64,000 nucleotides of DNA from Vulcanimicrobiota bacterium. Lineage in GTDB: Bacteria; Vulcanimicrobiota; Xenobia; Xenobiales; JADMJV01. A program made the position numbers and the translations under genes. Position 1 is the stretch's first letter. Every line of letters begins with the position of its first letter. Below the pieces are notes generated by a model, which had not been told where the DNA came from, did not search any database, and worked only from the letters and a program-made list of their open reading frames with translations. Location: positions 9,235-73,234 of the forward strand of contig JBFWNU010000005.1 in the NCBI GenBank assembly GCA_050250895.1, written 5' to 3'. Below are positions 2,668 through 46,703 of the stretch, piece after piece.

Positions 2668-3147
2668 CTAGCGAACCCTGGACCCCAGAAAGGAGTTGAA
2701 GAACCAATTCAGGACGGCGAAGGCCTCTCCCATCGAGCCGCCGCTCCTCTGGTGACCCTCACGCACCTGGTCGGTGACGAGCTCGTCTCCGGATAGGCCC
2801 CGGTTCTTGTAAATCTGGGTCACCTTGCGTAGCTCGCCGTGGTCGAACCAGATGCCGCGACAGGCCCGGCAAACGTCCAGCGCGATGCCGCCCACCAGTG
2901 GCCGTTCCATGCCCTGGCGGCAACGAGGGCATCGACGCGCCGCCGCCGAGATTTCATAGGTGTGGGTGGCCGACCCACCACCGGCCGGATTGAGGCGCTT
3001 CATCAGGTCAGGACTCTTGTAGAACGTGGCCAATTCGCCCGCGTCAAACCAGATACCGAGACAGTTCGGACAGGTATCGACTTCGAGACCGGTGCTTCCG
3101 TCCTTAAGCAGTTCCAACCCTTGCTTGCTGCAGACCGGACAAACCAT
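2668..3147 (-). CDS. Double zinc-ribbon protein (two CxxC...CxxC-G-IWFDxGEL repeats, zf-TFIIB/PF13453-like)
   Basis: Two copies of CP(V/R)C...CPNCLGIWFDAGEL / CPRCRQ...CRACRGIWFDHGEL in the translation. Confidence 0.6.
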   Translation of the reverse strand: MVCPVCSKQGLELLKDGSTGLEVDTCPNCLGIWFDAGELATFYKSPDLMKRLNPAGGGSATHTYEISAAARRCPRCRQGMERPLVGGIALDVCRACRGIWFDHGELRKVTQIYKNRGLSGDELVTDQVREGHQRSGGSMGEAFAVLNWFFNSFLGSRVR

Positions 3148-3189
3148 GGTCTGGCTATATACGCGAGTCGGCGCCGGGTGGCCTTCTGC

Positions 3190-3223
3190 TCAAAAGGAGA
3201 GCGGCGCCGTTGGCGCCGCTCTC
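3190..3223 (-). terminator. Rho-independent terminator downstream of the lipoprotein gene
   Basis: 12-bp perfect stem GAGAGCGGCGCC/GGCGCCGCTCTC with a 3-nt loop, then CTTTTG on the minus strand, 6 nt after the stop at 3229. Confidence 0.55.
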
Positions 3224-3228
3224 TTCTA

Positions 3229-3618
3229 CTAGTGGGATTCGTCCGAGTTCTCAGCCGGGGCGGCGTCCGTCATCGGCGTCTCTCCCTCGGCCGGGGCGCC
3301 ATCCACGGTGGCCTCGCCTTCGGCCGGCGCACCATCCATGGTGGCCGGCGCCTCCGCCGGTGCCCCATCCATGGTGGTGGGAGCTTCGCCGGCAGGCGCT
3401 CCGTCCATACTGGTCGGAGTCTCTTCCCCGGTGGCCGGGGCCGTGTCGGTGGCTGGGGCTGTGTCGGTGGCCGGGGCGGTTTGGCCTGGCGGCGGGACCT
3501 CCGCAGGCTGAGTCGCAGCCGGAGGAGGGGTAGGGGTCCCCTCGTTGACTTGACCTTGATTGCAGCCCGCGACCAGAGTGGCCAGCAGAAGGGCTCCAAC
3601 TAGAAAGATACGGTTCAT
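3229..3618 (-). CDS. Acidic Pro/Ala/Thr-rich lipoprotein with tandem peptide repeats
   Basis: Start placed at the internal Met (MNRIFLVGALLLATLVAGC, with lipobox LVAGC) preceded by GGGAGAGG RBS. Repeats TDTAPA x3 and MDGAPAE x4 are encoded by 18- and 36-nt DNA tandem repeats. The longer ORF begins at 3657. Confidence 0.55.
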   Translation of the reverse strand: MNRIFLVGALLLATLVAGCNQGQVNEGTPTPPPAATQPAEVPPPGQTAPATDTAPATDTAPATGEETPTSMDGAPAGEAPTTMDGAPAEAPATMDGAPAEGEATVDGAPAEGETPMTDAAPAENSDESH

Positions 3619-3803
3619 AAAATCCTCTCCCATGATGTGATGAGGGGTTAGCCTCATCTAGAATGTAGACGAACCGGGTCAAGCTTCCCTCAAGATGCCT
3701 GCCCGGCCGCGTCAATTTTGTGTCAAGGTTCTCTTGATAGTTCCTTGCTGTCAGGTGCGAGCGATTTGACCTCGACTTGACCCGCCCCTGTTAGAGTAAA
3801 GGC

Positions 3804-5054
3804 GTGTATCAGCTAGTCAGCGGCCTGGGCGTCGCCGCCCTGTTAGCCATCGCCTATGTCTTTTCGGAAAATAGGAAAGCTGTGTCCTGGCGGTTGGTGG
3901 CCGTGGGAACCGGATTGCAGTTTCTATTGGCTGGGCTGGTGCTAAAGACCAGCCCGGGACGTTGGGTCTTTGCCTGGTTTAATGACCTGATCGGTGCAAT
4001 TCTCGGCTATGGAGAGGCGGGAACGCGCTTCGTCTTCAGCGAGAAACTCACCGACCCTGGCGCGTTTGGCGACATGGTCTTCGCTTTCAAGGTATTGCCC
4101 ACCATCATTTTCTTTTCGGCCATGATGAGCGTGCTGTACTACCTGGGGGTGATGCAATGGGTGGTCGCCGGTCTTTCGCGGCTGATGATGAGGGCGCTGG
4201 GCACCTCCGGAGCCGAGACCCTCTCCTGCGCTGCCAACATCTTTGTCGGTCAGACCGAAGCGCCCCTCCTTATCCGTCCCTATGTCGAGCGCATGACACG
4301 TTCCGAGTTGATGACGGTGATGACCGGCGGGTTCGCGACCGTGGCCGGGGGGGTCATGGCCGCCTATGTGGCCATGCTTAGCGACCGCTTTCCCAGCATC
4401 GCCGGTCATCTCATGGCGGCCTCCGTCATGTCGGCTCCGGCGGCGCTCGTGATGGCCAAGATCCTGATCCCCGAAACCGAAGAGCCAGCCACCCGAGGAG
4501 AGATCGCCATCGACGTGCCGGTCAAGGATGCTAACGTCATCGAGGCGGCCGCCGCTGGAGCCAGCGATGGTGTATCGTTGGCCCTCAACGTGGCTGGAAT
4601 GCTGGTGGCTTTCATCGGACTGGTGGCGCTGGCCGATGGCGGTCTGCACCACCTGGGGCTGCTTCTGGGCTACGAGAACTGGAACTTGAGTGCCGTCTTC
4701 AGCCTGGTCTTTTATCCCTTCGCTCTGTTGTTGGGCGTCCCGCCGGCCGAGGCCGGGACGGTGGCCAGACTGCTAGGCCAGAAGGTCGTCCTCAACGAGT
4801 TCTACGCGTACTCCCAACTGAGCTTGCTCCTCCACGGCTCAACCCAGGTCTTGTCCGAACGCTCGGTCACCCTGGTGACCTATGCCCTGTGCGGTTTCTC
4901 GAATTACTCGTCGATCGGTATCCAGATTGCCGGCATCGGCGGTATCGCGCCGGGACGGCGCTCGGATCTGGCCCGTCTCGGGTTGGCGGCTATGTTGGCC
5001 GGAAACCTGGCTTGTCTACAAACGGCCTGTGTGACCGGGGTTTTGGTGAGGTGA
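3804..5054 (+). CDS. nupC: NupC/CNT family concentrative nucleoside transporter
   Basis: 416-aa polytopic membrane protein with CNT-family hallmarks (GxxFVFG..L, MTGGFATVAGGVMAAY). GTG start. TTGACC...TAGAGT promoter-like sequence ending 6 nt before the start. Confidence 0.85.
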   Translation: MYQLVSGLGVAALLAIAYVFSENRKAVSWRLVAVGTGLQFLLAGLVLKTSPGRWVFAWFNDLIGAILGYGEAGTRFVFSEKLTDPGAFGDMVFAFKVLPTIIFFSAMMSVLYYLGVMQWVVAGLSRLMMRALGTSGAETLSCAANIFVGQTEAPLLIRPYVERMTRSELMTVMTGGFATVAGGVMAAYVAMLSDRFPSIAGHLMAASVMSAPAALVMAKILIPETEEPATRGEIAIDVPVKDANVIEAAAAGASDGVSLALNVAGMLVAFIGLVALADGGLHHLGLLLGYENWNLSAVFSLVFYPFALLLGVPPAEAGTVARLLGQKVVLNEFYAYSQLSLLLHGSTQVLSERSVTLVTYALCGFSNYSSIGIQIAGIGGIAPGRRSDLARLGLAAMLAGNLACLQTACVTGVLVR

Positions 5055-7054: not shown

Positions 7055-8428
7055 ATGCAAGCATTATTGAATAAACTAGGTTATTCTCACTTTCGACCCG
7101 GCCAGCGCGAAGCTCTGGCTGCTCTTTACGAAGGGCTCGACGTGTTGGCGGTCATGCCGACGGGAGCGGGCAAGTCCCTGATCTATCAACTTGGCTCCCA
7201 GGCCGTCGAAGGCCTCACCCTGGTGGTCTCGCCCCTGATCTCCTTGATGCAGGATCAGGTGGCGCGTCTGGAAGGGCGTGGATTTGCCGCCACCTATCTC
7301 GCCTCGAGCCTGGGCGCCGACGAGCATCACCAGCGACTGGAGGCGGTCCAAAGAGGACACATCCGTCTGCTGTTCGTGGCTCCAGAAAGGCTGCAGTCGA
7401 TCCCCTTCCGGCGCACACTGGCCAATCACCAGGTAGGCCTGCTAGCGATCGACGAGGCCCATTGCATCTCGCAGTGGGGCCACGACTTTCGCCCCGACTA
7501 TCGGCGCCTGGCCCAGCTCCGCCGCGAGCTGGGCTGCCCCTTGACGGTGGCCATGACGGCCACGGCCACTCCGGATGTTCAGGGCGACATCCTGCGCTGT
7601 CTCGAGATCGAGCAGGCCGTTCGAGTGGTGACCGGCTTTGACCGTCCCAACCTGGCCCTGAAGGTTCTGACCACCCCGGGTGGCGCCTACAAGGACGAGG
7701 TTCTCGCCGGGCTGGTCGCGGCCCATCTGAATCAGGTCATTCTGGTTTACGTCGGGACCCGCGCCGAATCCGAGCGGCTGAGCCTGGAACTGTCCGGCCT
7801 GCGGCCGACGATCTGCTATCACGGTGGCCTGCCCACCAAGGTCCGGACCGAGGCCTTGCAGCGGTTTTCGACCGAGGCCAACCCCCTGGTGGTGGCCACC
7901 AACGCTTTCGGCATGGGCATCGACCGGCCCGACGTGCGCCTGGTGATCCATCATCAGATGCCAGGCACGCTAGAGGCCTACTATCAAGAGGTGGGCCGGG
8001 CCGGACGAGACGGTAAACTGGCCGAGGGCGTCTTGCTGTTCGACCGCGAAGACCGCAAGTTGCACGAGTGGTTCATCAACCGGGCCTTTCCAACCCTCGA
8101 GAAGCTCCACGAGACCCACCTCAAACTGAGTCAGGGTGTCTCGTTTCGGCGCCTCAATCAGGTGGCCGTGGCCCAACTGGAGAAGGCCGGCCTGGTGACC
8201 AGGGTGGGACCAGGTCGATTCGTGACCCAACCCTGGACGCCGCGGCCTCTGGCTCGCCAGCTCGACGCCTCGGCAAACTACCGTCACCATCGCCATCGAC
8301 AACTCGAGAAGATGATCGCATACGCCGACGCCACGGTTTGCAGGCGCGGCCTGATCGTCAATCATTTCGGACAGAACCGGTTCACCGCCAGCAAACCGTG
8401 CTGCGACAACTGTCGGTCGTCGGGGTGA
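7055..8428 (+). CDS. recQ: RecQ-family ATP-dependent DNA helicase (short form, no HRDC)
   Basis: PTGAGKSLIYQL Walker A, DEAHCISQWGHDFRPDY, RQC zinc-binding Cys cluster. GGAGGTG RBS. Confidence 0.85.
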   Translation: MQALLNKLGYSHFRPGQREALAALYEGLDVLAVMPTGAGKSLIYQLGSQAVEGLTLVVSPLISLMQDQVARLEGRGFAATYLASSLGADEHHQRLEAVQRGHIRLLFVAPERLQSIPFRRTLANHQVGLLAIDEAHCISQWGHDFRPDYRRLAQLRRELGCPLTVAMTATATPDVQGDILRCLEIEQAVRVVTGFDRPNLALKVLTTPGGAYKDEVLAGLVAAHLNQVILVYVGTRAESERLSLELSGLRPTICYHGGLPTKVRTEALQRFSTEANPLVVATNAFGMGIDRPDVRLVIHHQMPGTLEAYYQEVGRAGRDGKLAEGVLLFDREDRKLHEWFINRAFPTLEKLHETHLKLSQGVSFRRLNQVAVAQLEKAGLVTRVGPGRFVTQPWTPRPLARQLDASANYRHHRHRQLEKMIAYADATVCRRGLIVNHFGQNRFTASKPCCDNCRSSG

Positions 8429-13650: not shown

Positions 13651-15546
13651 ATGCATCCCCTTCAAGTCTTGCACGAACGCTTCACATACAGCCACTTTCG
13701 GGCCGGCCAACTCGAGGTGATCCACTCGTTGCTCGCCGGCCACAGTGCGGCCGCCGTCTTTCCCACGGGGGCCGGCAAGTCGCTGTGCTATCAGCTACCG
13801 GCTTTAATGTGGCCGGGCCTGACGTTGGTAGTCAGTCCGCTCATCGCCTTGATGAAGGACCAGATCGACGCCCTGGTCGCTCGCGGCATCGCCGCTGCGC
13901 GGCTCGATTCGAGCCTGGACCTCGAGCAGTATCGAGAGACGATGCAGGCCGCCGCCGATGGCCGGCTGCGGTTGCTCTATGTGGCCCCCGAGCGTTTCAA
14001 CAACGAGCGTTTTCGGCAGTCGCTAAAGCAGCTCGACATCGAGTTGTTTGCTGTCGACGAGGCCCACTGCGTGTCGGAATGGGGGCACAATTTTCGGCCC
14101 GACTACCTCAAGTTGGCCGGTTACGCTCGGGATTTCCAGGCACGACGCGTGTTGGCCCTGACCGCCACCGCCACTCCCCAGGTGCTCGAAGACATCTGCC
14201 AGTGCTTTTCCATCTCGCCCGAGCATACGGTGCGCACACCGTTTCATCGTCCTAACCTCACCTTGAGGGCTCGGCCGGTCGCCAGCCAGCACCACAAGCA
14301 ACTGGCCCTCATCGAGGGTCTGCGGGGGCGCCCCGAGGGTCCCACCATCGTCTACGTTACCTTGCAGCGCACCGCCGAGTCGGTGGCCGGCTGGCTCGAG
14401 CAGGCCGGTTTCGCGGCTCGGCCTTACCATGCCGGTCTTGACAACGAGGTCCGGGCCGAGACCCAGGAGTGGTTCCTGGCCAGCCCCGACGGCATCGTGG
14501 TGGCTACCATCGCCTTCGGGATGGGCATCGACAAATCAGACATCCGTTACGTGTACCACTATGACCCTCCCAAGAGTCTGGAGAATTACGCCCAGGAAAT
14601 CGGCCGGGCGGGACGTGACGGAGAGCCCTCCACCTGCGAGATGCTCCTCTACGAGCCTGACCGCATTCCCCTCGAGAACTTCGTCTATGGCGACACTCCG
14701 ACCCTCGACGCCATCACCAGCTTATTGGGTGAACTCTTCGGGGGGGCTGACGAATTGGTGCTCAATCTTTACGCCCTCTCGACCCACCATGATATCCGAC
14801 CCCTGGTGCTGCGCACGTTGCTGACCTATCTCGAGTTGGAGGGTTATCTCGAGGGGCTGACGCCGATCTACTCCAGCTATCGCTTCAAGCCGCTGATCAG
14901 CTCGCAAGAGATGCTCGGGCATTTCGAGGGCGAGCGTCGCGAGTTCTTGACGGCTTTGTTTCGCCTGGCCGTACGCAAACGCACCTGGTGCGACATCAGC
15001 ATCGAGACGGCGTGTCAAAGGCTCGAGTGCGGGCGCGACCGAGTGGTGGCGGCCATGGATTATCTGGCCCAGCAGGGGTGGCTCGAACTCAAAGTGGCCG
15101 ATCTGCGCCATCGCTACCGCCTCTTGAGGCGACCCGGACCCGAGCTGGCCAAAACTCTCCACCAGAGGGCCCTGGCTCGGGAACGAGCCGAGCTTGAGCG
15201 TCTCGACCAGGTCATCGCCCTGGCCCGAGCCCAGGAGTGCCGGGTGGCCCTCTTGAGTGCCCACTTCGGCGAGGCGGTCGAGCCGCCTTGCGGCCACTGC
15301 TGCTGGTGTCTGGGCGAGGCGATCCAGGCACCCGACCAGGATCAGACTCGCCCCGCACTCGATCTGGAAGGCTTGCCAGAGGCGCTACGCACTCCACGTG
15401 AGGTGGCCCGCTTTCTGTGCGGAGTCACCTCACCGGCCCTTTCGCGGGCAGGTCTGACCAAGCATCCACGCTTCGGCGAGGCGGCCGGGGTGTCTTTTGG
15501 TCACATCCTGGCCAGCTTTCAGGAGACTTTCACGCCGACCGTCTAA
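13651..15546 (+). CDS. RecQ-family DNA helicase paralog with extended C-terminal domain
   Basis: PTGAGKSLCYQL, DEAHCVSEWGHNFRPDY, C-terminal CGHCCWC zinc motif. Confidence 0.85.
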   Translation: MHPLQVLHERFTYSHFRAGQLEVIHSLLAGHSAAAVFPTGAGKSLCYQLPALMWPGLTLVVSPLIALMKDQIDALVARGIAAARLDSSLDLEQYRETMQAAADGRLRLLYVAPERFNNERFRQSLKQLDIELFAVDEAHCVSEWGHNFRPDYLKLAGYARDFQARRVLALTATATPQVLEDICQCFSISPEHTVRTPFHRPNLTLRARPVASQHHKQLALIEGLRGRPEGPTIVYVTLQRTAESVAGWLEQAGFAARPYHAGLDNEVRAETQEWFLASPDGIVVATIAFGMGIDKSDIRYVYHYDPPKSLENYAQEIGRAGRDGEPSTCEMLLYEPDRIPLENFVYGDTPTLDAITSLLGELFGGADELVLNLYALSTHHDIRPLVLRTLLTYLELEGYLEGLTPIYSSYRFKPLISSQEMLGHFEGERREFLTALFRLAVRKRTWCDISIETACQRLECGRDRVVAAMDYLAQQGWLELKVADLRHRYRLLRRPGPELAKTLHQRALARERAELERLDQVIALARAQECRVALLSAHFGEAVEPPCGHCCWCLGEAIQAPDQDQTRPALDLEGLPEALRTPREVARFLCGVTSPALSRAGLTKHPRFGEAAGVSFGHILASFQETFTPTV

Positions 15547-39632: not shown

Positions 39633-41051
39633 GTGGATTTCGAACTGCCCGAGGTCGCCCACACGCGCACCCCAGAAGTCGAGGCGCTCTTGTTGGCCTG
39701 CGGACCTGACCCTGCCCCGACGCGCGTTTGGGTGAAGGTCCTCAAGTCCGAATTGGGAGCCAATCTACTGGCCAGGCTCGGAGTCACGCTCTCGGCCGTC
39801 GAGGAGGGGCTCGTTCCCTCGGCGGAGTCGATGGACAAGGTCCTTGGACACGCCGCCAGTCTGGGGTTGATGAGGTCAAGCGATTGCAGCGAATCCTTCT
39901 TCCATGCCCTGTTGAACGATCCCCTCAGCAACTTCAGCCAGGCCGCGGCTGAGCAACGAGAGAAGCTCTTGTCTCTGGCAGAGCAGCGCATTCGTTCAGG
40001 CGAGTTGACCTGGCTCGAGTTTGGCGACCGGTTCACGCCCGAAACCGAAGGCGAGCAGATAGAACGGTGCCTGGTCAAAGCGAGCTGGATCCCTGAGAGA
40101 ATTCGGGCCAGCTTGACCGAGCAGGCCAAGAGCTGGATCGGTCCGCCAATTGACGAACCTCTGGTCCTGGTTCCCAGCCTCGTGCAGTTAAAGCACCTTG
40201 CCTTTGCTCTAATCCGAAGTCCGGCCGTGCAGCATTTGATGAGCGGGGTGGGTGTGGTGCCCTCGCGCCTCGGCTACGCCTTCGAACGTCTGATGCCCGA
40301 GATGCCAGGAGAGTTGGCTCGACGCGAAGTGACGGTACCCCCGCGGATGTGGGTGGTCGTCCCGGCCTGCGAAGAAGCCCAGCGCCTGGGCCATGCCGAG
40401 GTCGTTCCCGACCATCTCTTGCTGGGCTTGCTGGCGGATGATGAGTGTGCGGCAAGCCTTGCCCTGGTCGAGGCCGGGTACGATCTGCGCCAGCTACGCC
40501 GCCAGGTTGAAGCCGGGCTACAGGCGGACCAGACTGGCGAGAGTCGCTTCAGCGAAGAGGCAAAGGAGGCTCTGGCCGCGGCCGCCTGGGCCACGCAGAG
40601 CTATCGGCCAGATTCTTTGTATTTGTTGGCGACGCTCTTGCCGATGTCGAGCCATCTCGACGAGTCGCTGGCGGACCTGCTGGGGCGAAGGGCCGCGGGC
40701 GACTTGGAGGACGGTCGCCTCGAGATGGGCGGGCTGTGGATCGGGATGCTCACCGAGGACGTCGTTTCGCGACTGGGTCCCCCAACCACGGTCGGCGAGG
40801 AGGAGGACCAACTTGGCTGGAGCGCCGACGGCGTCGTGGCGGTGATCTCTCAGGGAGCCGTGCGTCAACTGGCGGGTACGGAGATGATTCGAAATGGCCG
40901 GACGGTGCTTGGGTTTGGCGACTCGCGACGCAAGGCCGAATTGCTGCTGGGCCCCGACCTTTGCAAGCTAGTTCTCGGCGATGAGCCGGTCTGGGTGAAG
41001 GTCTCCTGCCTGGGAAACAAAGTCTGCATGATCTCCTTGGAGGCTGGTTAG
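39633..41051 (+). CDS. Clp N-terminal repeat domain protein (no ATPase domain)
   Basis: ACEEAQRLGHAEVVPDHLLLGLLADDECAASLALVEAGYDLRQLRRQVE and a second, degenerate Clp_N repeat. Confidence 0.5.
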   Translation: MDFELPEVAHTRTPEVEALLLACGPDPAPTRVWVKVLKSELGANLLARLGVTLSAVEEGLVPSAESMDKVLGHAASLGLMRSSDCSESFFHALLNDPLSNFSQAAAEQREKLLSLAEQRIRSGELTWLEFGDRFTPETEGEQIERCLVKASWIPERIRASLTEQAKSWIGPPIDEPLVLVPSLVQLKHLAFALIRSPAVQHLMSGVGVVPSRLGYAFERLMPEMPGELARREVTVPPRMWVVVPACEEAQRLGHAEVVPDHLLLGLLADDECAASLALVEAGYDLRQLRRQVEAGLQADQTGESRFSEEAKEALAAAAWATQSYRPDSLYLLATLLPMSSHLDESLADLLGRRAAGDLEDGRLEMGGLWIGMLTEDVVSRLGPPTTVGEEEDQLGWSADGVVAVISQGAVRQLAGTEMIRNGRTVLGFGDSRRKAELLLGPDLCKLVLGDEPVWVKVSCLGNKVCMISLEAG

Positions 41052-41545
41052 TCCAGACTTCCAGCTGGAACCAGGCGCGCCGCGAAGTCCTCGGTCTCGG
41101 GGCTGGCATAGAACCGGAGTTCTCGACCGTCATTGGTTGTAATGACGGCAAATGACGGCGGCCCGAGCATCATGGTATGACTGCTATGGGCGTACCCTAC
41201 CCGTGCAAGCAGAGTGTCCCACGCGTCCGCCTTCGCCTCCCGACGCCGGTCCGCGCAAAGGCTTTTCAACAAGCCCTCGAACTCGTCGATCGAGATTTCG
41301 AATTCGGCGGCGGGATTGGTTGACCAGTCGAGACCGGAGGGGCCGAACAGGCTGGCGCTTACCCGGGACTCCTGTGGAACCAGGGTCAAACGATAGCGCT
41401 CGCCGCCCAGCCGGACCGAGCAGACAAGTTCGTTGACCCTGGAGGCGTCAACCCAGAACGAGCGGGAGATGGCGAGCCCCGCCACGGTCAGCGTCAATCC
41501 CACCAGTAGAAAGACGACTACCCCTCGATTTAGGAAGCGCTCCAC
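41048..41545 (-). CDS. Membrane-anchored hypothetical protein (paralog of 44696..45193)
   Basis: 165 aa, N-terminal TM, shared motif L.C...L....RL...P.....NP.AEF.(L/I). Its 3' end contains the CTTCCAGCTGGAA palindrome (encoding PAGS). Confidence 0.5.
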   Translation of the reverse strand: MERFLNRGVVVFLLVGLTLTVAGLAISRSFWVDASRVNELVCSVRLGGERYRLTLVPQESRVSASLFGPSGLDWSTNPAAEFEISIDEFEGLLKSLCADRRREAKADAWDTLLARVGYAHSSHTMMLGPPSFAVITTNDGRELRFYASPETEDFAARLVPAGSLD

Positions 41546-41554
41546 CGTTCCAGT

Positions 41555-41830
41555 TTACAGCGAAGGCGCTGAGGTGTCGACAGGTTCGCTCAAGAAGAAG
41601 GCCTCGCCAAACTCGGGATGCGGCTGGATCGTGAAGCCGAGCCCTTCCAGCACACGTCGGAGTTTGGGATTCGGTTTGGCGCAGTGGACCGCATACACCA
41701 CCCACTCGATCCGCTCGAGTTCGCGCCGACGGGCGATTGCTCGCGCCAACCTGGCGACGGCCGGCAAGATTCCCTCGCCCCTCCCTCGATGTGAGCTAAT
41801 TTCGGCCCCAGACCTCCCTTCTGGGCCGAA
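41555..41830 (-). pseudogene. GNAT acetyltransferase remnant (C-terminal half only)
   Basis: Frame gives HRGRGEGILPAVARLARAIA...NPKLRRVLEGLGF (acetyl-CoA motif A and C-terminal motif) with an in-frame stop upstream and no N-terminal half. Confidence 0.4.
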
Positions 41831-42149
41831 TCACAAAGCCACCTGTCGTCTTCCAGCTGGAAGTCGTCCTGAAAATGTTCTGATTCCCTAACATTTGCAA
41901 TGAGAGGATTGTCCCCGAAGATTACTCCCAACTTCAATCGGGGCCACAACGTCCATGATGGGCGCTTTCAGCCCTCCCCGTACCGTCCATGGCTGGCGAA
42001 GTCGTTTTTCAGTCAGAGACCCTGCTCGCAGCCTCCTGTGACACGAGCCGGAAACCCAATAACCAAGCCGTTTCGTCGCGTTGATCCGGGCCGGATTCTT
42101 GAGTAAAATGGGATCATTCCTTGATTCTTCTTCTACTCGGAGGTCGGCT

Positions 42150-43337
42150 ATGTCATCATCTCTATCGGGACTCTCCCACTCACTACAACAGCTCTCACAC
42201 CAGCAACTACATCAGCGAAACCGCCAGGCCAGCCAGCGTTCTTTTGGCTGCGAATGGGAACTGGCCGCCCACCTGCTGGCCACCGAACGTAGCGGTCTCT
42301 ATCGCCACATGGGCAGCGGAAGTGTAGTCGGCTACGCGATCCGCCACCTCCATCTGCATCCCCAAAAGGCCGGCGAACTCCTCAGTTTGGCCAAAGTTTT
42401 CGAGCAACTGCCCCTGATCTCAGAGGCCTTTCGCGAGGGCAAACTCTGCTGGAGCAAAGCCCGCGCTCTCAAGCGGATCACCACTCCCGAAAACGAACGC
42501 GAGATGCTGGAATTCGCCCTCAAGAACAAGGCCCAGACGGTCGAGCGCGCCGTGGCTCTGACTCCCACTGAACACAAGCGCGGCCAGGCTTTGAAAGCTT
42601 CGCTCGAAGCTCGCGAAACCCAGCCTGGGCTTGAGTTTGTCGAGCAACCCGCAGAGGCAGTCCAAAAGCCAGCTACGACCTCCGTTCCCGCGGTTCCAAA
42701 GCTGAGACAGGTTGTTCTGCTGCTGACCCCCGAGCAGTATGCCATCTACGAGCAGGCCAAGAGAATGGTCGAGGCGCGCCAGGGCAAGCGCGTCAGCAAA
42801 GAGACGGCCGTGGCCGAGATGAGCAGGGCTCTGCTCGCCTCGGCAGACAACCGCAGCAAAGTGCGCCATCAGGTCATCGTCCACGTGAACGGTGTCACGG
42901 GCGAAGGGTTCTACGATACCGACCGGGGACTGCTGCCGGCCGAACCGGCGGCCGTTGACGAGGCGATGAAGCAAACCGGCATCGTGGTGGCTTGTCCCCC
43001 ACCCGAACTTCCAGCTGGAAGTACCCAGCCCGAGCAATTGCCGTTGCTGCCGAGTCGGTCGAAAGTGCGGCCGGGCCTTCCGGTGGGTTTGGTGCGAGCC
43101 GTGCATGCTCGGGCCTTAGGCCGCTGTGAGCGATGTTCGTGTGCTGGCGGCAACCTGGTGGTGCACCACGTTCGCGCCTGGTCCGAGACCCGGTGCCATC
43201 GGCTAGAGGACTTAGAGCTGTTGTGTCCGAGTTGCCACGCCAACGAGCACGAGAAAGACTTTGCAACCCGGCCGCAGTGGAAGGCCGCGCGGGAGGCCGC
43301 CGTGCAGCGTCGGCGCACCAGGTCTCGCTCGGGCTGA
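42150..43337 (+). CDS. DUF222 + HNH endonuclease domain protein (mycobacterial REP13E12-like family)
   Basis: C-terminal CERCSCAGGNLVVHHV...LLCPSCHANEH HNH motif. GGAGG RBS 7 nt before the ATG at 42150. The longer ORF begins at 42081. Confidence 0.7.
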   Translation: MSSSLSGLSHSLQQLSHQQLHQRNRQASQRSFGCEWELAAHLLATERSGLYRHMGSGSVVGYAIRHLHLHPQKAGELLSLAKVFEQLPLISEAFREGKLCWSKARALKRITTPENEREMLEFALKNKAQTVERAVALTPTEHKRGQALKASLEARETQPGLEFVEQPAEAVQKPATTSVPAVPKLRQVVLLLTPEQYAIYEQAKRMVEARQGKRVSKETAVAEMSRALLASADNRSKVRHQVIVHVNGVTGEGFYDTDRGLLPAEPAAVDEAMKQTGIVVACPPPELPAGSTQPEQLPLLPSRSKVRPGLPVGLVRAVHARALGRCERCSCAGGNLVVHHVRAWSETRCHRLEDLELLCPSCHANEHEKDFATRPQWKAAREAAVQRRRTRSRSG

Positions 43338-43339
43338 GG

Positions 43340-44239
43340 CTACCCGGTTTTCGGGCGGGGCCAAAGAGCCGGCGGCTTCTGGCGATTTTCGACCATGGCC
43401 TGGATTGCCTTCGGGGAGTGCCCCCGAGCGGCTAACACGCGGCGGGCGAAAGCTTCGAACTCGTCGCCCAGAACGTCTGCGACAAAGACCGGAAAGTGCC
43501 ATTGTTCGCAGCGTTGTTGGGCCCGCGGCAGGTAGACCTCGCCGCAGACCTGGCAGGTCTGCTCGCGATCAAAGGGCACGGCCATGTCGGGCGTCGCCTT
43601 GCAGCGAGGGCAGTGGCCGAATGTCGTGAGATACCCCAGGTCGGAGTGGCCGTAGGGCGCCAACTCGACCTGGAGTGGCAAGCTGCTGCGCAGGGCCAGG
43701 CGGAAGTGGGCGAACTCTTCGCCGTCGAGGGTCTCGAAGAGCTGAGATAGTAGGCCACGCTGATCGTCGGTAAGGGGTGACTGGAGCCAGAGACCGTAAT
43801 AGACAGGCTTCGTTTCAGGGAAAGCCGCGCGAAACGGCGCCTCCAGCCCAAGCTTGGCCACGCTCTCGAGCAGCCAATCCTCGGTCTCATCGGGATGGAG
43901 GTAAAAGGCACCGTGGCAACCCGCCGGCCGTTGACCGGCGAGATTGGCGTCGCAGCCGTGGCACAGACTCGCGCCGTGCTCGAGCAGAGCCCCGTGCAAG
44001 GGGAAGCCGATATACGGAAAATCACGCCACACGCCAGTATCATCGGGAATGTCGCAGCCATCGACCAGACAGATGTTCTCGAAGACCTCGCCGTCTCCCA
44101 GGAGGCCCAAATCGAAGAGTTCCCGAGAGGTGGCCTCGGGCGAGTTGGAGTGGGTGCGGTAGGCGCAGGGTCGCTCGAGGCACCACCGCACCGCCTGGAG
44201 GGTGGCCGGCACGGGGGGGATTTCGCGCCGCCCGGTCAC
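43340..44239 (-). CDS. Hypothetical Cys-rich protein
   Basis: Start placed at the GTG forming a GTGA overlap with the upstream gene's stop; the ORF track extends to 44317. Confidence 0.45.
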   Translation of the reverse strand: MTGRREIPPVPATLQAVRWCLERPCAYRTHSNSPEATSRELFDLGLLGDGEVFENICLVDGCDIPDDTGVWRDFPYIGFPLHGALLEHGASLCHGCDANLAGQRPAGCHGAFYLHPDETEDWLLESVAKLGLEAPFRAAFPETKPVYYGLWLQSPLTDDQRGLLSQLFETLDGEEFAHFRLALRSSLPLQVELAPYGHSDLGYLTTFGHCPRCKATPDMAVPFDREQTCQVCGEVYLPRAQQRCEQWHFPVFVADVLGDEFEAFARRVLAARGHSPKAIQAMVENRQKPPALWPRPKTG

Positions 44240-44695: not shown

Positions 44696-45193
44696 TCAGG
44701 GGGCCGGGGCTTGAGTGGCCCAGACAGAGGACGGCAAGAGCCCTACGACAAAGCGATTGGTCTCTGGAGTGGCTGAAAGGCTGACCAGAGAGCCGTTGGT
44801 CTTCTCCAACTCCACCCAGGCGTAGAACGTCGACTGAGGGTTGCCCTGGGACGGCCCCAGGTTGATCCATCCCAGGCTATCGTCGAGTCTGTCATGGCGA
44901 TATTCGGCGGCGACTCGCGCCATCAACTCCTCGAGTTGAGTCGGGGTGAGGGTGAATTCGGCGATAGGATTCTCGCTGTCGAAGTCACGCAACTTGCAGC
45001 GAGCGGACCCGCCGGTTGGAGTCACTTGCAGTCGCCACACGCCGGCGGGTAGCACAATTCCGCACTCGAGGGAACGGACCTGGGCCGGATGGAGACTGGC
45101 AGAGTACCACAGCCCCGCAAAGCCCGCCGCCGTCACCAGCAGGCCGAGCACCATCAGGGCAAGGGGGTCGGGCCGCGGCCGAGGAGAGTCCAT
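44696..45193 (-). CDS. Membrane-anchored hypothetical protein (paralog of 41048..41545)
   Basis: 165 aa; LECGIVLPAGVWRLQVTP...NPIAEFTLTPTQLEEL aligns with LVCSVRLGGERYRLTLVP...NPAAEFEISIDEFEGL. Confidence 0.5.
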   Translation of the reverse strand: MDSPRPRPDPLALMVLGLLVTAAGFAGLWYSASLHPAQVRSLECGIVLPAGVWRLQVTPTGGSARCKLRDFDSENPIAEFTLTPTQLEELMARVAAEYRHDRLDDSLGWINLGPSQGNPQSTFYAWVELEKTNGSLVSLSATPETNRFVVGLLPSSVWATQAPAP

Positions 45194-45242: not shown

Positions 45243-46703
45243 CTAGCTGCGCCAGAAAGGCTGCAACAGGCGCGACCAGTTGCGTTGCTTTTGCTGATAT
45301 TCCCAGGCCATCTTGTCCAGGCGCTTCTTGGGGATCTGGGTGGCTACCGAGGCATGGGTGGTCGGGTCGGCCACGTAGAGATAGCCGAGCATGTCGTAGA
45401 AGCGCTGCTGGTCCAAGGCTGACTCGCTCCAGTATTTCAGCTGCAGCACGTTGATCTTCTCGGCGGCCAGGGTCTCGTACCAGCGGGTCAGGGGCAGACC
45501 CAGCGGGCGTAGCGACGGCTCGCTGGCCACCAGCACCATGGCCAGTTCGGCGGCGGCATCCTCGGGTTCGCCGGTGATGGCCAGGTCGGCGTCGGCGATG
45601 AGCGCGAAAGCGAACTCTTGCAGCATCGAGAATTTCTCGAGTGCGGCCATGGTCTCCGCCGTCTGGGCCGGTGGGTAGCGGCGCGAGAGGCGGGCCTCGG
45701 CGTCGTCGAAGAAGTCCTGGCTGAGCAAGATCTGGCCCGAGTGGGGCAAGAAGGCGTTGCGCTGGAGTTCGACCTTCTTATAGACCACCGTCAGGTTTTT
45801 GGGCAGTTTGAAAGTGGCTTGCAAAAGCGAGACCATCTGAGCGAAGTTGCCACGTCGCGTCAGTTCGGTGATGGGCAAGAGCTTGCCCTCGGCGGGAACG
45901 AAGGTTAGGCTGCGCGGGTTGGCGGGTTCAGGGGTGACCGTCTGCAAGCGATAGGGTCCCGCGGTGACCTGGTGGGCTGCCAGCAGGCGACGCCAGCGGG
46001 CTACCTTTTGAGGATAGCGCTCGTGGGCCAGGCGCAGGCGGGTGTAAGGGACCAGCGGGCTGATGATGGGGCTCAGTTCGGTGGGGTTCGAACCGTAGAG
46101 AAAGCAGAGTATCTTGTAGAAGCGCTGCGAGTTCATCGAGTGCTCGTCCCAGAAGGCCAGTTCCGAGAGGCGCACTTCGGAGCTGCCCATCAGGCGAAAC
46201 CAGTTGGCCGCCGCCAGCGACTGTCCGACTCCGTGGTCAGAAAGCGCGTCAAGGCCAATCAGGGTGGCGAATTCGTCGGCCGAATCCTCTTCACGGCCGA
46301 CCGCCGGCAGGTCCAGTTCATGAATGAGGGCATGGCCCAGTTCGTGCAGCAAGATGAAGTCGACGGTGGCTCGCGTCTGTTGCTCGGGGTCGGGCAGGCC
46401 CGAGCGGCGGAACAAGTCGAGCAGAAAGGCCACCAGGTTGTAACTGACCGTGATGCGGTGCTCGGCCGGGCTGTACCAGGCGTTGATCTTGGGGTGCTCT
46501 TGATAGACGATGGGCAGGGCCCGGGGCAGCCGGTAGGTGCGGTTGATATAGGCCGGCAGGTCGCGGTGAAGCGGGTCGGCTTGCAACAACAACCGCATCT
46601 GCTCGCCCCGAGCGGTCGTGCCGGGCTGCCACTCCGAGGTGACCGCCGGCTGGGCGAAGGCAAAGCTGGTGAGTAAGAGCAGAAGAAGAACTCTGAGAAG
46701 CAT
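45243..46703 (-). CDS. Secreted putative zinc metallopeptidase, tandemly duplicated domain (DUF4344-like, HELGH motif)
   Basis: Signal peptide MLLRVLLLLLLTSFAFA; HELGHALIHELDLP in repeat 1, degenerate in repeat 2; repeated ...SxxxxxRFYxxLxxLYxxxP... motifs. Confidence 0.6.
   Translation of the reverse strand: MLLRVLLLLLLTSFAFAQPAVTSEWQPGTTARGEQMRLLLQADPLHRDLPAYINRTYRLPRALPIVYQEHPKINAWYSPAEHRITVSYNLVAFLLDLFRRSGLPDPEQQTRATVDFILLHELGHALIHELDLPAVGREEDSADEFATLIGLDALSDHGVGQSLAAANWFRLMGSSEVRLSELAFWDEHSMNSQRFYKILCFLYGSNPTELSPIISPLVPYTRLRLAHERYPQKVARWRRLLAAHQVTAGPYRLQTVTPEPANPRSLTFVPAEGKLLPITELTRRGNFAQMVSLLQATFKLPKNLTVVYKKVELQRNAFLPHSGQILLSQDFFDDAEARLSRRYPPAQTAETMAALEKFSMLQEFAFALIADADLAITGEPEDAAAELAMVLVASEPSLRPLGLPLTRWYETLAAEKINVLQLKYWSESALDQQRFYDMLGYLYVADPTTHASVATQIPKKRLDKMAWEYQQKQRNWSRLLQPFWRS

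Follow-up and report, generated by a model that had tools for sequence, protein, structure and literature searches.

The 13E12 family is conspicuous in Mycobacterium tuberculosis as an SOS-induced repeat and as a leading hotspot of gene conversion and large inversions (PMC3381160, PMC13061034, PMC13157036). The palindrome known at the 13E12 genes of mycobacteria is the LexA SOS box TCGAAC-N4-GTTCGA, situated at the promoter (PMC3381160), and papers of 2026 still describe the family as lacking a defined biological function (PMC13061034, PMC13157036). Here we analyzed a 64-kb stretch of bacterial DNA (the window), in which a gene of the same two-domain type, encoding a DUF222-HNH protein, is accompanied by three copies of a different palindrome. 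We propose, as a moderately probable explanation, that this palindrome is recognized by the very protein encoded beside it.

In Bacillus subtilis one parS site lies inside spo0J, KorB represses from operators up to more than 1 kb away, and sopC of the F plasmid is an array of 12 repeats of 43 bp, every one of which contains a 16-bp inverted repeat to which SopB binds. The free-standing homing endonuclease I-TevI of phage T4 autoregulates via an operator-like copy of its target that overlaps its promoter. Two-fold symmetric pairs of ParB domains bind the 16-bp palindrome TGTTTCAC-GTGAAACA, and pairs of Noc domains the equally long TATTTCCC-GGGAAATA (PMC7383237).

In the window, CTTCCAGCTGGAA was found exactly at 41058-41070, 41850-41862 and 43008-43020, and the 64 kb contained no fourth copy; in 100 dinucleotide-preserving shuffles of the window this count was never reached (shuffle mean 0.10), and neither the 12-mer TTCCAGCTGGAA nor TCCAGCTGGA occurred again within it. 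An earlier reading of this DNA made from the sequence alone had claimed that three copies within 2 kb exceed chance, and had placed the first in the 3' end of a small gene (encoding PAGS), the second in non-coding DNA and the third in the HNH gene (again encoding PAGS); both claims were confirmed. The distal copy 1 lies within the final codons (LVPAGSLD and the stop) of a 165-aa minus-strand gene (41048-41545), 792 bp to the left of copy 2, and an ortholog 93% identical to the 165-aa protein retains VPAGSLD. Copy 2 precedes the annotated start codon of the HNH gene (ATG at 42150) by 300 nt, with its centre at 293 nt and about 230 nt upstream of a promoter-like -35, and marks the left edge of the sequence common to the paralogs. 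Copy 3 forms the codons GAA CTT CCA GCT GGA AGT (ELPAGS) in the second inter-domain linker of the HNH gene.

A Vulcanimicrobiota (Eremiobacterota) metagenome-assembled genome (MAG) encodes a protein 100% identical to the window HNH protein; hence the organism is not a mycobacterium, and the mycobacterial setting to which the earlier reading referred finds no support. A locus identical to window positions 32150-53337 is present on contig JBFXAX010000014.1 of the assembly GCA_050183855.1. At least six DUF222-HNH genes were found in that genome, on six contigs and with different neighbors for each, and the protein database holds at least 13 close paralogs of the window protein. We compared the window with five further loci of this genome (123.6 kb in total): L005, L006, L007 and L012, whose genes show 84-90% DNA identity to the window copy and form subfamily 1 with it, and L014, which is 46% identical at the protein level and represents a second subfamily.

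The sites conform to the 16-bp consensus (A/T)CTTCC-N4-GGAAGT. Among 22 sites, the C-T-T-C-C and G-G-A-A of the arms were invariant and the flanking G and T almost so, whereas the central four nucleotides varied (AGCT, AACT, GGGC, GTGC, GCGC). Invariant 6-bp arms around a variable centre are, judged from the alignment, the pattern of a two-fold symmetric dimer site. CTTCC-N4-GGAAG matched 21 times in the 123.6 kb against 0.21 matches expected, and 19 of these matches fell in the interval from -1.4 kb to +0.9 kb around the start codon of a DUF222-HNH gene. Only two lay far from the HNH genes, one at L005 position 4096, 1.6 kb upstream of the proximal site of that locus, and a weaker one at L014 position 3897. 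The remaining ~62 kb of the window contained no copy, and ~55 kb of flanks contained only these two, loosely placed. The palindrome is a real signal that, in the 123.6 kb covered, is specifically tied to the DUF222-HNH gene and not a genome-wide over-represented word; the association with the 13E12-like gene postulated earlier held in all five further copies. The same near-absence from the rest of the window and from the flanks led to the rejection of a dispersed palindromic repeat of the repetitive extragenic palindromic (REP) or miniature inverted-repeat transposable element (MITE) type.

The arrangement of the sites was regular in subfamily 1. An upstream site about 300 nt before the ATG was present in five of five copies (at -291 to -300 in L005, L006 and L012, and at -374 in L007), and an identical internal site at +855 to +865 was present in all five. 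Further upstream sites came in tandem arrays: two in L007 (a 165-nt repeat, x2.5), four in L012 (287-nt, x3.7) and four in L014 (161-194-nt repeats, x~4), the last with the same arms and GGGC or GTGC in the centre. The array units were 91-97% identical within one locus, and when units of different loci and window positions 41000-41860 were compared, the palindrome alone was common to them. Because the units are alike within a locus and unrelated between loci, the arrays appear to be recent local amplifications and not an inherited array. The resemblance to sopC lies in tandem units carrying one short palindrome each beside the gene of a (putative) ParB-family binder; the units here are longer (161-287 nt), unrelated between loci and set in a chromosome.

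The internal site is conserved beyond what its peptide would demand. In a codon alignment of the five subfamily-1 genes the 18 nt of copy 3 were identical, whereas the flanking codons varied and contained indels; 12 of 15 subfamily-1 proteins shared LPAGS, which lies in a linker of variable length that is disordered in the AlphaFold model (predicted local distance difference test score, pLDDT, ~30). Since the codons are identical in five genes and the same as in the non-coding copies, selection on the peptide cannot account for them, and this segment is, on the alignment, constrained as DNA. Immediately 3' of the internal palindrome a 9-codon insertion was found in L012 (6877-6903) and likewise in the proteins P0008, P0009, P0010 and P0012 (e.g., SPPEVPAET); it resembles a degenerate tandem copy of the ELPAGS stretch (LPAGS...VPAETS).

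The protein comprises a helical N-domain, a linker, an alpha/beta middle domain, the site-bearing linker and a C-terminal HNH domain of the His-Me finger type. The last was recognized by Pfam PF01844 (28.1 bits, cutoff 21.4); its CxxC...CxxC and HH motifs are intact, and the HH and CxxC pairs are invariant among the aligned subfamily-1 proteins. The DUF222 score (PF02720; 21.5-23.7 bits, with 21.5 for the window protein) lies just below the gathering score of 24.4; the paralogs P0003, P0004 and P0011 have precomputed PF02720 matches, a profile of the N-domain retrieved 8,714 representative proteins at E<=1e-3, the mark of a large family, and the N-domain aligned with those of the actinobacterial relatives L004 and L016. 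The source annotation reads 'HNH endonuclease signature motif containing protein [Vulcanimicrobiota bacterium]'. On this sequence evidence we assign the window gene to the 13E12/DUF222-HNH family.

The N-terminal 160 residues were modelled with AlphaFold (pLDDT 85.5) and the model was compared with the PDB by Foldseek; the top 25 matches were without exception ParB, Spo0J or Noc DNA-binding domains, among them complexes with parS and with the Noc-binding site (NBS). The template modelling (TM) scores normalized to the query were 0.45-0.60, with a root-mean-square deviation (rmsd) of 2.4-3.5 A over 100-125 columns and a best-match probability of 0.96-1.00; for 1vz0 they were 0.58-0.60 and 2.5 A over ~122 columns. 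The full-length model returned the same ParB/Spo0J/Noc families together with HNH enzymes. The ParBc Pfam domain was not matched even at E<=10 and residues 1-156 were modelled as helices only, which indicates that the N-terminal CTP-binding ParB domain with its GERRxR box is absent. At the level of models, the relation between the N-domain and ParB/Noc is one of fold similarity, not proven homology.

With ParB/Spo0J-parS, Noc-NBS and KorB-OB of RK2 the locus would share a helix-turn-helix domain of the same predicted fold, and several sites clustered at the gene of the (here putative) binder. The site, as in the first two pairs, is a 16-bp two-fold palindrome, which in the known systems is bound by two DNA-binding-domain monomers (PMC7383237), and the half-sites of parS (TGTTTCAC), NBS (TATTTCCC), this locus (ACTTCCAG) and L004 (GTTTTCCG) have T3, T4 and C6 in common. 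Unlike in the ParB-type systems, both the CTPase domain and a partner ParA are missing here, the DNA-binding-like domain forms one protein with an HNH nuclease, its gene occurs in multiple dispersed copies, and sequence similarity to ParB is statistically undetectable.

Scans of genome and metagenome contigs with protein alignment yielded no close relatives, only homologs with 26-41% identity, among them L004, L008 and L009; the distant relatives used for comparing palindromes come from other organisms and are 31-34% identical. The metagenome relative L008 (34% identical, from an organism of 56% GC) carries TTTCCCCGGCGGGGAAA at about -330 and -200 and once within the gene, in a different linker (encoding VSPAGKT), a number of copies reached by none of 200 shuffles. 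L009, its neighbor in that metagenome, retains one copy upstream and one inside the gene, both slightly degenerate; its gene (3950-5053) appears from the reading frame, which ends in the HNH motif region, to be a pseudogene. The sites of L008 and L009 combine TTCC/GGAA arms with N7 spacing. In the actinobacterium L004 (Ilumatobacteraceae) the perfect 16-mer GTTTTCCGCGGAAAAC lies about 100 nt upstream of the start codon. Each of the groups has a different predicted recognition helix (QKAGELL/YKALELL, KRTWELL, PAGTERV). A tblastn search of plasmids with the HNH protein gave a single homolog, L016, on the Rhodococcus erythropolis plasmid NZ_CP050126.1, and no TTCC palindrome was found at its DUF222-HNH locus. 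There the DUF222-HNH gene is preceded by a gene for a GNAT family acetyltransferase, the perfect palindrome CGTCCCCGCGGGGACG and an SOS-like box.

The repeated unit (Table 1) consists of ~20-40 nt, the proximal site, a 5' region of ~300 nt and the open reading frame (ORF), and the homology stops at or just after the stop codon. The comparison of paralogs revealed no inverted terminal repeat and no target duplication, at its right end no palindrome and nothing conserved past the stop, and a Pfam scan of the HNH protein gave no transposase domain. A transposon or insertion sequence was rejected on these grounds, and the unit is, as far as the alignments tell, a gene with its conserved 5' region and no recognizable transposon. 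The paralogs are mosaic: their N, middle and C segments have different nearest neighbors. No integrase, phage genes or phage context were found next to the HNH genes in the window or the fetched loci, and a scan of viral contigs for ACTTCCAGCTGGAAGT gave 20 single matches, about the chance estimate, with no clusters and no sign of a phage target. The prophage attachment or recombination site proposed in the sequence-only reading thus finds no support, the missing site at the right end included.

The 5' region is ordered as palindrome, second inverted repeat, conserved T-run, promoter-like element and leader. The second inverted repeat, AAATGTT-N10-AACATTT, may be a second operator, perhaps the site of a host regulator; in L014 an AACAA-N9-TTGTT repeat lies near the promoter. 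The leader can fold a small hairpin (GGATCAT/GATTCTT) just 5' of the Shine-Dalgarno sequence. The left palindrome arm GACTTCC (41848-41857) is complementary to the Shine-Dalgarno region GGAGGTC (42136-42143), and RNAalifold pairs the two over 300 nt; this pairing was dismissed as a structure and ascribed to the resemblance of CTTCC to the anti-Shine-Dalgarno sequence. Separated from the -35 by about 230 nt on the upstream side, the palindrome is no operator of the classical kind that overlaps its promoter.

Compared with the mycobacterial REP13E12, the locus has the same DUF222 plus HNH two-domain family, multiple dispersed copies and a palindromic (here putative) protein-binding site by the genes, and its mosaic paralogs parallel the gene conversion of M. 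tuberculosis. It differs in the palindrome itself, which is CTTCC-N4-GGAAG, lies far from the promoter, recurs inside the ORF and is found in arrays, and also in the lack of a prophage or attB context and in the phylum, Vulcanimicrobiota.

The explanation that we favor, with somewhat more confidence than doubt, is that the DUF222-HNH protein itself recognizes the palindrome as its cognate site, parS-like or operator-like. From the fold, the site geometry and the linkage to the gene across lineages we infer that a protein dimer would bind the palindrome through its N-terminal ParB/Noc-like helix-turn-helix, one monomer per 6-bp arm. The earlier suggestion of an operator bound by a dimeric regulator would then hold in part: the anatomy of the motif fits it, and the likeliest binder is the N-domain of the HNH protein and not a separate regulator. 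Each gene keeps at least one site about 300 nt upstream, and the subfamily-1 genes a second one within the ORF, where the disordered linker would tolerate it; together these sites would tether the nuclease to its own gene. The most conservative consequence, by analogy, would be autoregulation at a distance, with the upstream and internal sites bridged or serving as a roadblock in the manner of silencing by KorB/ParB. The tethered HNH domain may also nick or break nearby DNA and so promote local rearrangements, a step suggested by the amplified segments with the site at three of the six loci, the indels beside the internal site, the mosaic paralogs and the neighboring gene truncated ~25 nt from the edge of the unit. 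The favored explanation gains support from the association with the gene, the layout conserved among the paralogs, the invariant arms, the constraint on the internal site as DNA, the array units alike in the palindrome only, the match of the N-domain model to ParB/Spo0J/Noc domains, and the distant relatives, which have TTCC...GGAA palindromes of their own upstream and, in two loci, in a linker, together with different predicted recognition helices. I-TevI offers a parallel: in this site-specific nuclease a flexible linker connects the DNA-binding domain to the rest of the enzyme, and cognate sites near its own gene could be bound without productive cleavage; it differs in that the sites here are off the promoter, perfectly palindromic and present in several copies, and no intron, intein or element-free allele was seen.

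Several observations weigh against recognition of the palindrome by the protein of its own gene. The extra loci were all retrieved via the HNH gene, which biases ascertainment, and the unbiased background is limited to the remaining window and the flanks. The Foldseek E-values were weak (0.2-2), hmmsearch with the A5 profile and the broader A6 profile (40 diverse representatives) found no ParB among the PDB sequences, and hhalign against a Spo0J segment, an approximate query, was not significant (E 0.5-0.6). The two subfamilies are only 46% identical, yet their arms are identical, and a shared host factor explains this equally well. The palindromes do not overlap the promoter-like element, so that simple repression is not obvious, and a nuclease that occupies intact sites within the very gene encoding it must avoid destroying that gene. 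Finally, palindrome-free, long-period, GC-rich tandem repeats also occur near the HNH genes (L005 2057-2439 and 7511-7819; L006 4487-4763; L012 7303-7454), so the arrays may be partly incidental. HNH-gene loci may be repeat-prone in general; the 64-kb window contained no tandem repeat with a period >=100 nt.

It is also conceivable, albeit unlikely in our estimate, that the palindrome serves above all as a target for cleavage or recombination by the HNH nuclease, a homing-like or gene-conversion site at which cutting spreads or homogenizes the ~1.5-kb unit and produces local rearrangements, regulatory binding being secondary. This explanation overlaps the favored one, as it invokes the same protein and the same site for a different purpose. 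It accords with a dispersed family of at least six copies in different neighborhoods, with the mosaic paralogs and with what look like rearrangement scars at the sites, namely the tandem arrays, the 9-codon duplicate after the internal site, the variable linker length and the neighbor truncated close to the unit; copy 1 and the L005 site at 4095 could be off-element targets. In M. tuberculosis, too, 13E12 loci rank among the foremost hotspots for both gene conversion and inversion (PMC13061034, PMC13157036). In classical homing, however, insertion destroys the target, whereas here the sites are intact and perfectly conserved in the element. The right end has neither site, repeat nor target duplication where the homology stops, the array junctions do not match the palindrome centre, the breakpoints of the mosaic paralogs could not be traced to the palindrome, and palindromes and repeats are unstable even without a nuclease.

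An operator of a host transcription factor, e.g., the SOS repressor LexA of this phylum, controlling all DUF222-HNH genes as in mycobacteria, seems improbable. Most of the 13E12 genes of M. tuberculosis are directly bound by LexA, some at intragenic sites (PMC3381160). The Rhodococcus plasmid homolog has, as read by eye in L016 2600-2760, the mycobacterial-type box TCGAACGTACATTCGA about 40 nt before its ATG, the 6-N4-6 layout is that of the Gram-positive box, and the arms are identical in both subfamilies of this genome. The sites, however, lie ~230 nt upstream and ~900 nt downstream of the -35, off the conserved promoter, and recur in amplified arrays. The CTTCC arms are unlike GAAC-N4-GTTC, and no such box was found upstream of these genes: the only two matches (41111 and 44467) are in coding regions and attributable to chance. 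The TTCC...GGAA palindrome of the actinobacterial L004 is not the actinobacterial LexA box, and the N7 spacing in L008 and L009 is hard to square with one conserved host dimer.

Still less can be said for a nucleic-acid structure, i.e., an RNA or single-stranded DNA hairpin with a 6-bp stem and a 4-nt loop, or a cruciform, acting as a terminator, a stability element, part of a non-coding RNA or the substrate of a structure-specific nuclease; we regard it as very improbable. Conserved arms with a variable 4-nt centre would also suit a stem and loop, the ~300-nt 5' region is conserved, and HNH-fold enzymes include structure-specific resolvases. Against this, Rfam gave no match even at E<=1, RNAalifold on the five 5' regions returned a positive (penalizing) covariation term and no supported structure, and no T-run follows the sites. 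The upstream sites lie 5' of the predicted promoter and so may not be transcribed with the gene, and it is the arm sequence itself that is conserved, with zero compensatory changes in 22 sites. Coincidence or a constraint on a PAGS peptide, with the DNA identity as a by-product, can practically be discarded: copies 1 and 3 do encode PAGS in the same frame, but most sites are non-coding, which effectively refutes it, five genes use identical codons despite the hundreds of synonymous spellings open to Leu, Pro, Ala, Gly and Ser, the two PAGS-bearing proteins are unrelated, and no shuffle of the window reached the observed count.

The coordinates of the features are collected in Table 1. The hairpin noted earlier near the left end of the unit was found as described. 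The gene beside it had been called a GNAT pseudogene; it is indeed truncated at its 5' end, matching residues ~54-132 of homologs of 130-143 aa, and its N-terminal ~53 residues are absent from the entire window. The GNAT label goes back to a resemblance seen by eye, and neither the remnant nor its family had a Pfam match even at E<=1. This family of 130-143-aa proteins has the highly conserved motif IEWVVHALNCAKPNPKLRRV and is known only from metagenomes.

Table 1. Features of the DUF222-HNH locus in the window.
Feature	Position	Strand	Remarks
Distal site, copy 1	41056..41073	.	GACTTCCAGCTGGAACCA; left arm perfect, right arm with one deviation (GGAAC, not GGAAG)
5'-truncated remnant of a ~130-aa gene	41555..41806	-	broken off ~25 nt short of the left boundary of the HNH unit
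Imperfect hairpin TTCGGCCCCAG...CTGGGCCGAA	41801..41830	.	junction of the remnant and the HNH unit; without T-run, not conserved in other copies
Unit common to paralogs, ~1.5 kb	41832..43363	+	90% identity to L005 over that span
Proximal upstream site, copy 2	41848..41865	.	GTCTTCCAGCTGGAAGTC; non-coding
Second inverted repeat AAATGTT-N10-AACATTT	41873..41896	.	8-25 nt right of the proximal site; arms conserved in 5/5 subfamily-1 copies
Predicted sigma-70-like promoter TTGATC-17-TAAAAT	42081..42109	+	conserved in 5/5 subfamily-1 copies; contains no palindrome
5' leader with GGAGG Shine-Dalgarno sequence	42110..42149	+	GGGATCATTCCTTGATTCTTCTTCTACTCGGAGGTCGGCT; almost all columns identical across paralogs
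DUF222-HNH endonuclease gene (P0001)	42150..43337	+	395 aa
N-terminal DUF222 domain coding region	42150..42554	+	residues 1-135; modelled as ParB/Spo0J/Noc-like helix-turn-helix
Internal site, copy 3	43006..43023	.	AACTTCCAGCTGGAAGTA; perfect 16-bp palindrome
HNH nuclease domain coding region	43080..43337	+	residues ~311-395; profile matches EcoKMcrA 6ghc (E 4e-5) and IscB HNH

The gene that ends in copy 1 has a paralog in the window: the 165-aa predicted membrane proteins encoded at 41048-41545 and 44696-45193 (both on the minus strand) flank the HNH gene and its neighbors, are 26% identical (E 8e-11) and have no Pfam match. The L005 counterpart of the distal site, ACTTCCGCGCGGAAGT at 4095-4110, lies 160 nt upstream of the orfA start of an IS3-family transposase pair (HTH_Tnp_1 and rve, 2725-3935), which is located ~2 kb upstream of the HNH copy of that locus. 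Genes for DUF4344 metallopeptidases adjoin the HNH locus both in the window (45243-46703) and in L006. Two RecQ-like helicase genes, recognized by eye from their N-terminal motifs, occupy 7055-8428 and 13651-15546 of the window, less than 8 kb apart and with no palindrome nearby.

Within the library searched, papers that mention DUF222 or REP13E12 treat it as a repeat of undefined function, a LexA target and a recombination hotspot, and neither a gene-linked palindrome other than that of LexA nor a ParB-like fold of DUF222 was found described there. The gene family and the type of protein-site pair are both known; their combination is new. A broader generalization can be put forward only tentatively and with more doubt than confidence: DUF222 may be a ParB/Noc-derived DNA-binding domain, and the whole DUF222-HNH family may consist of self-targeting site-specific nucleases with lineage-specific parS-like palindromes upstream of and inside their genes. 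Binding or nicking at these palindromes would both control expression and drive the gene conversion, the inversions and the tandem amplification observed at such loci, be it in Vulcanimicrobiota or in M. tuberculosis.

The gene-linked palindrome and the ParB/Noc-like fold lead to a cheaply testable hypothesis that the protein recognizes sites at its own locus. Should the sites belong instead to a host operator, they would be the first regulatory box defined for Vulcanimicrobiota. If the hypothesis is true, a nuclease fusion would join the repertoire of ParB-type DNA-binding domains, and recognition of its own locus would explain the frequent recombination at 13E12 loci and could inform a long-standing question concerning 13E12 repeats.

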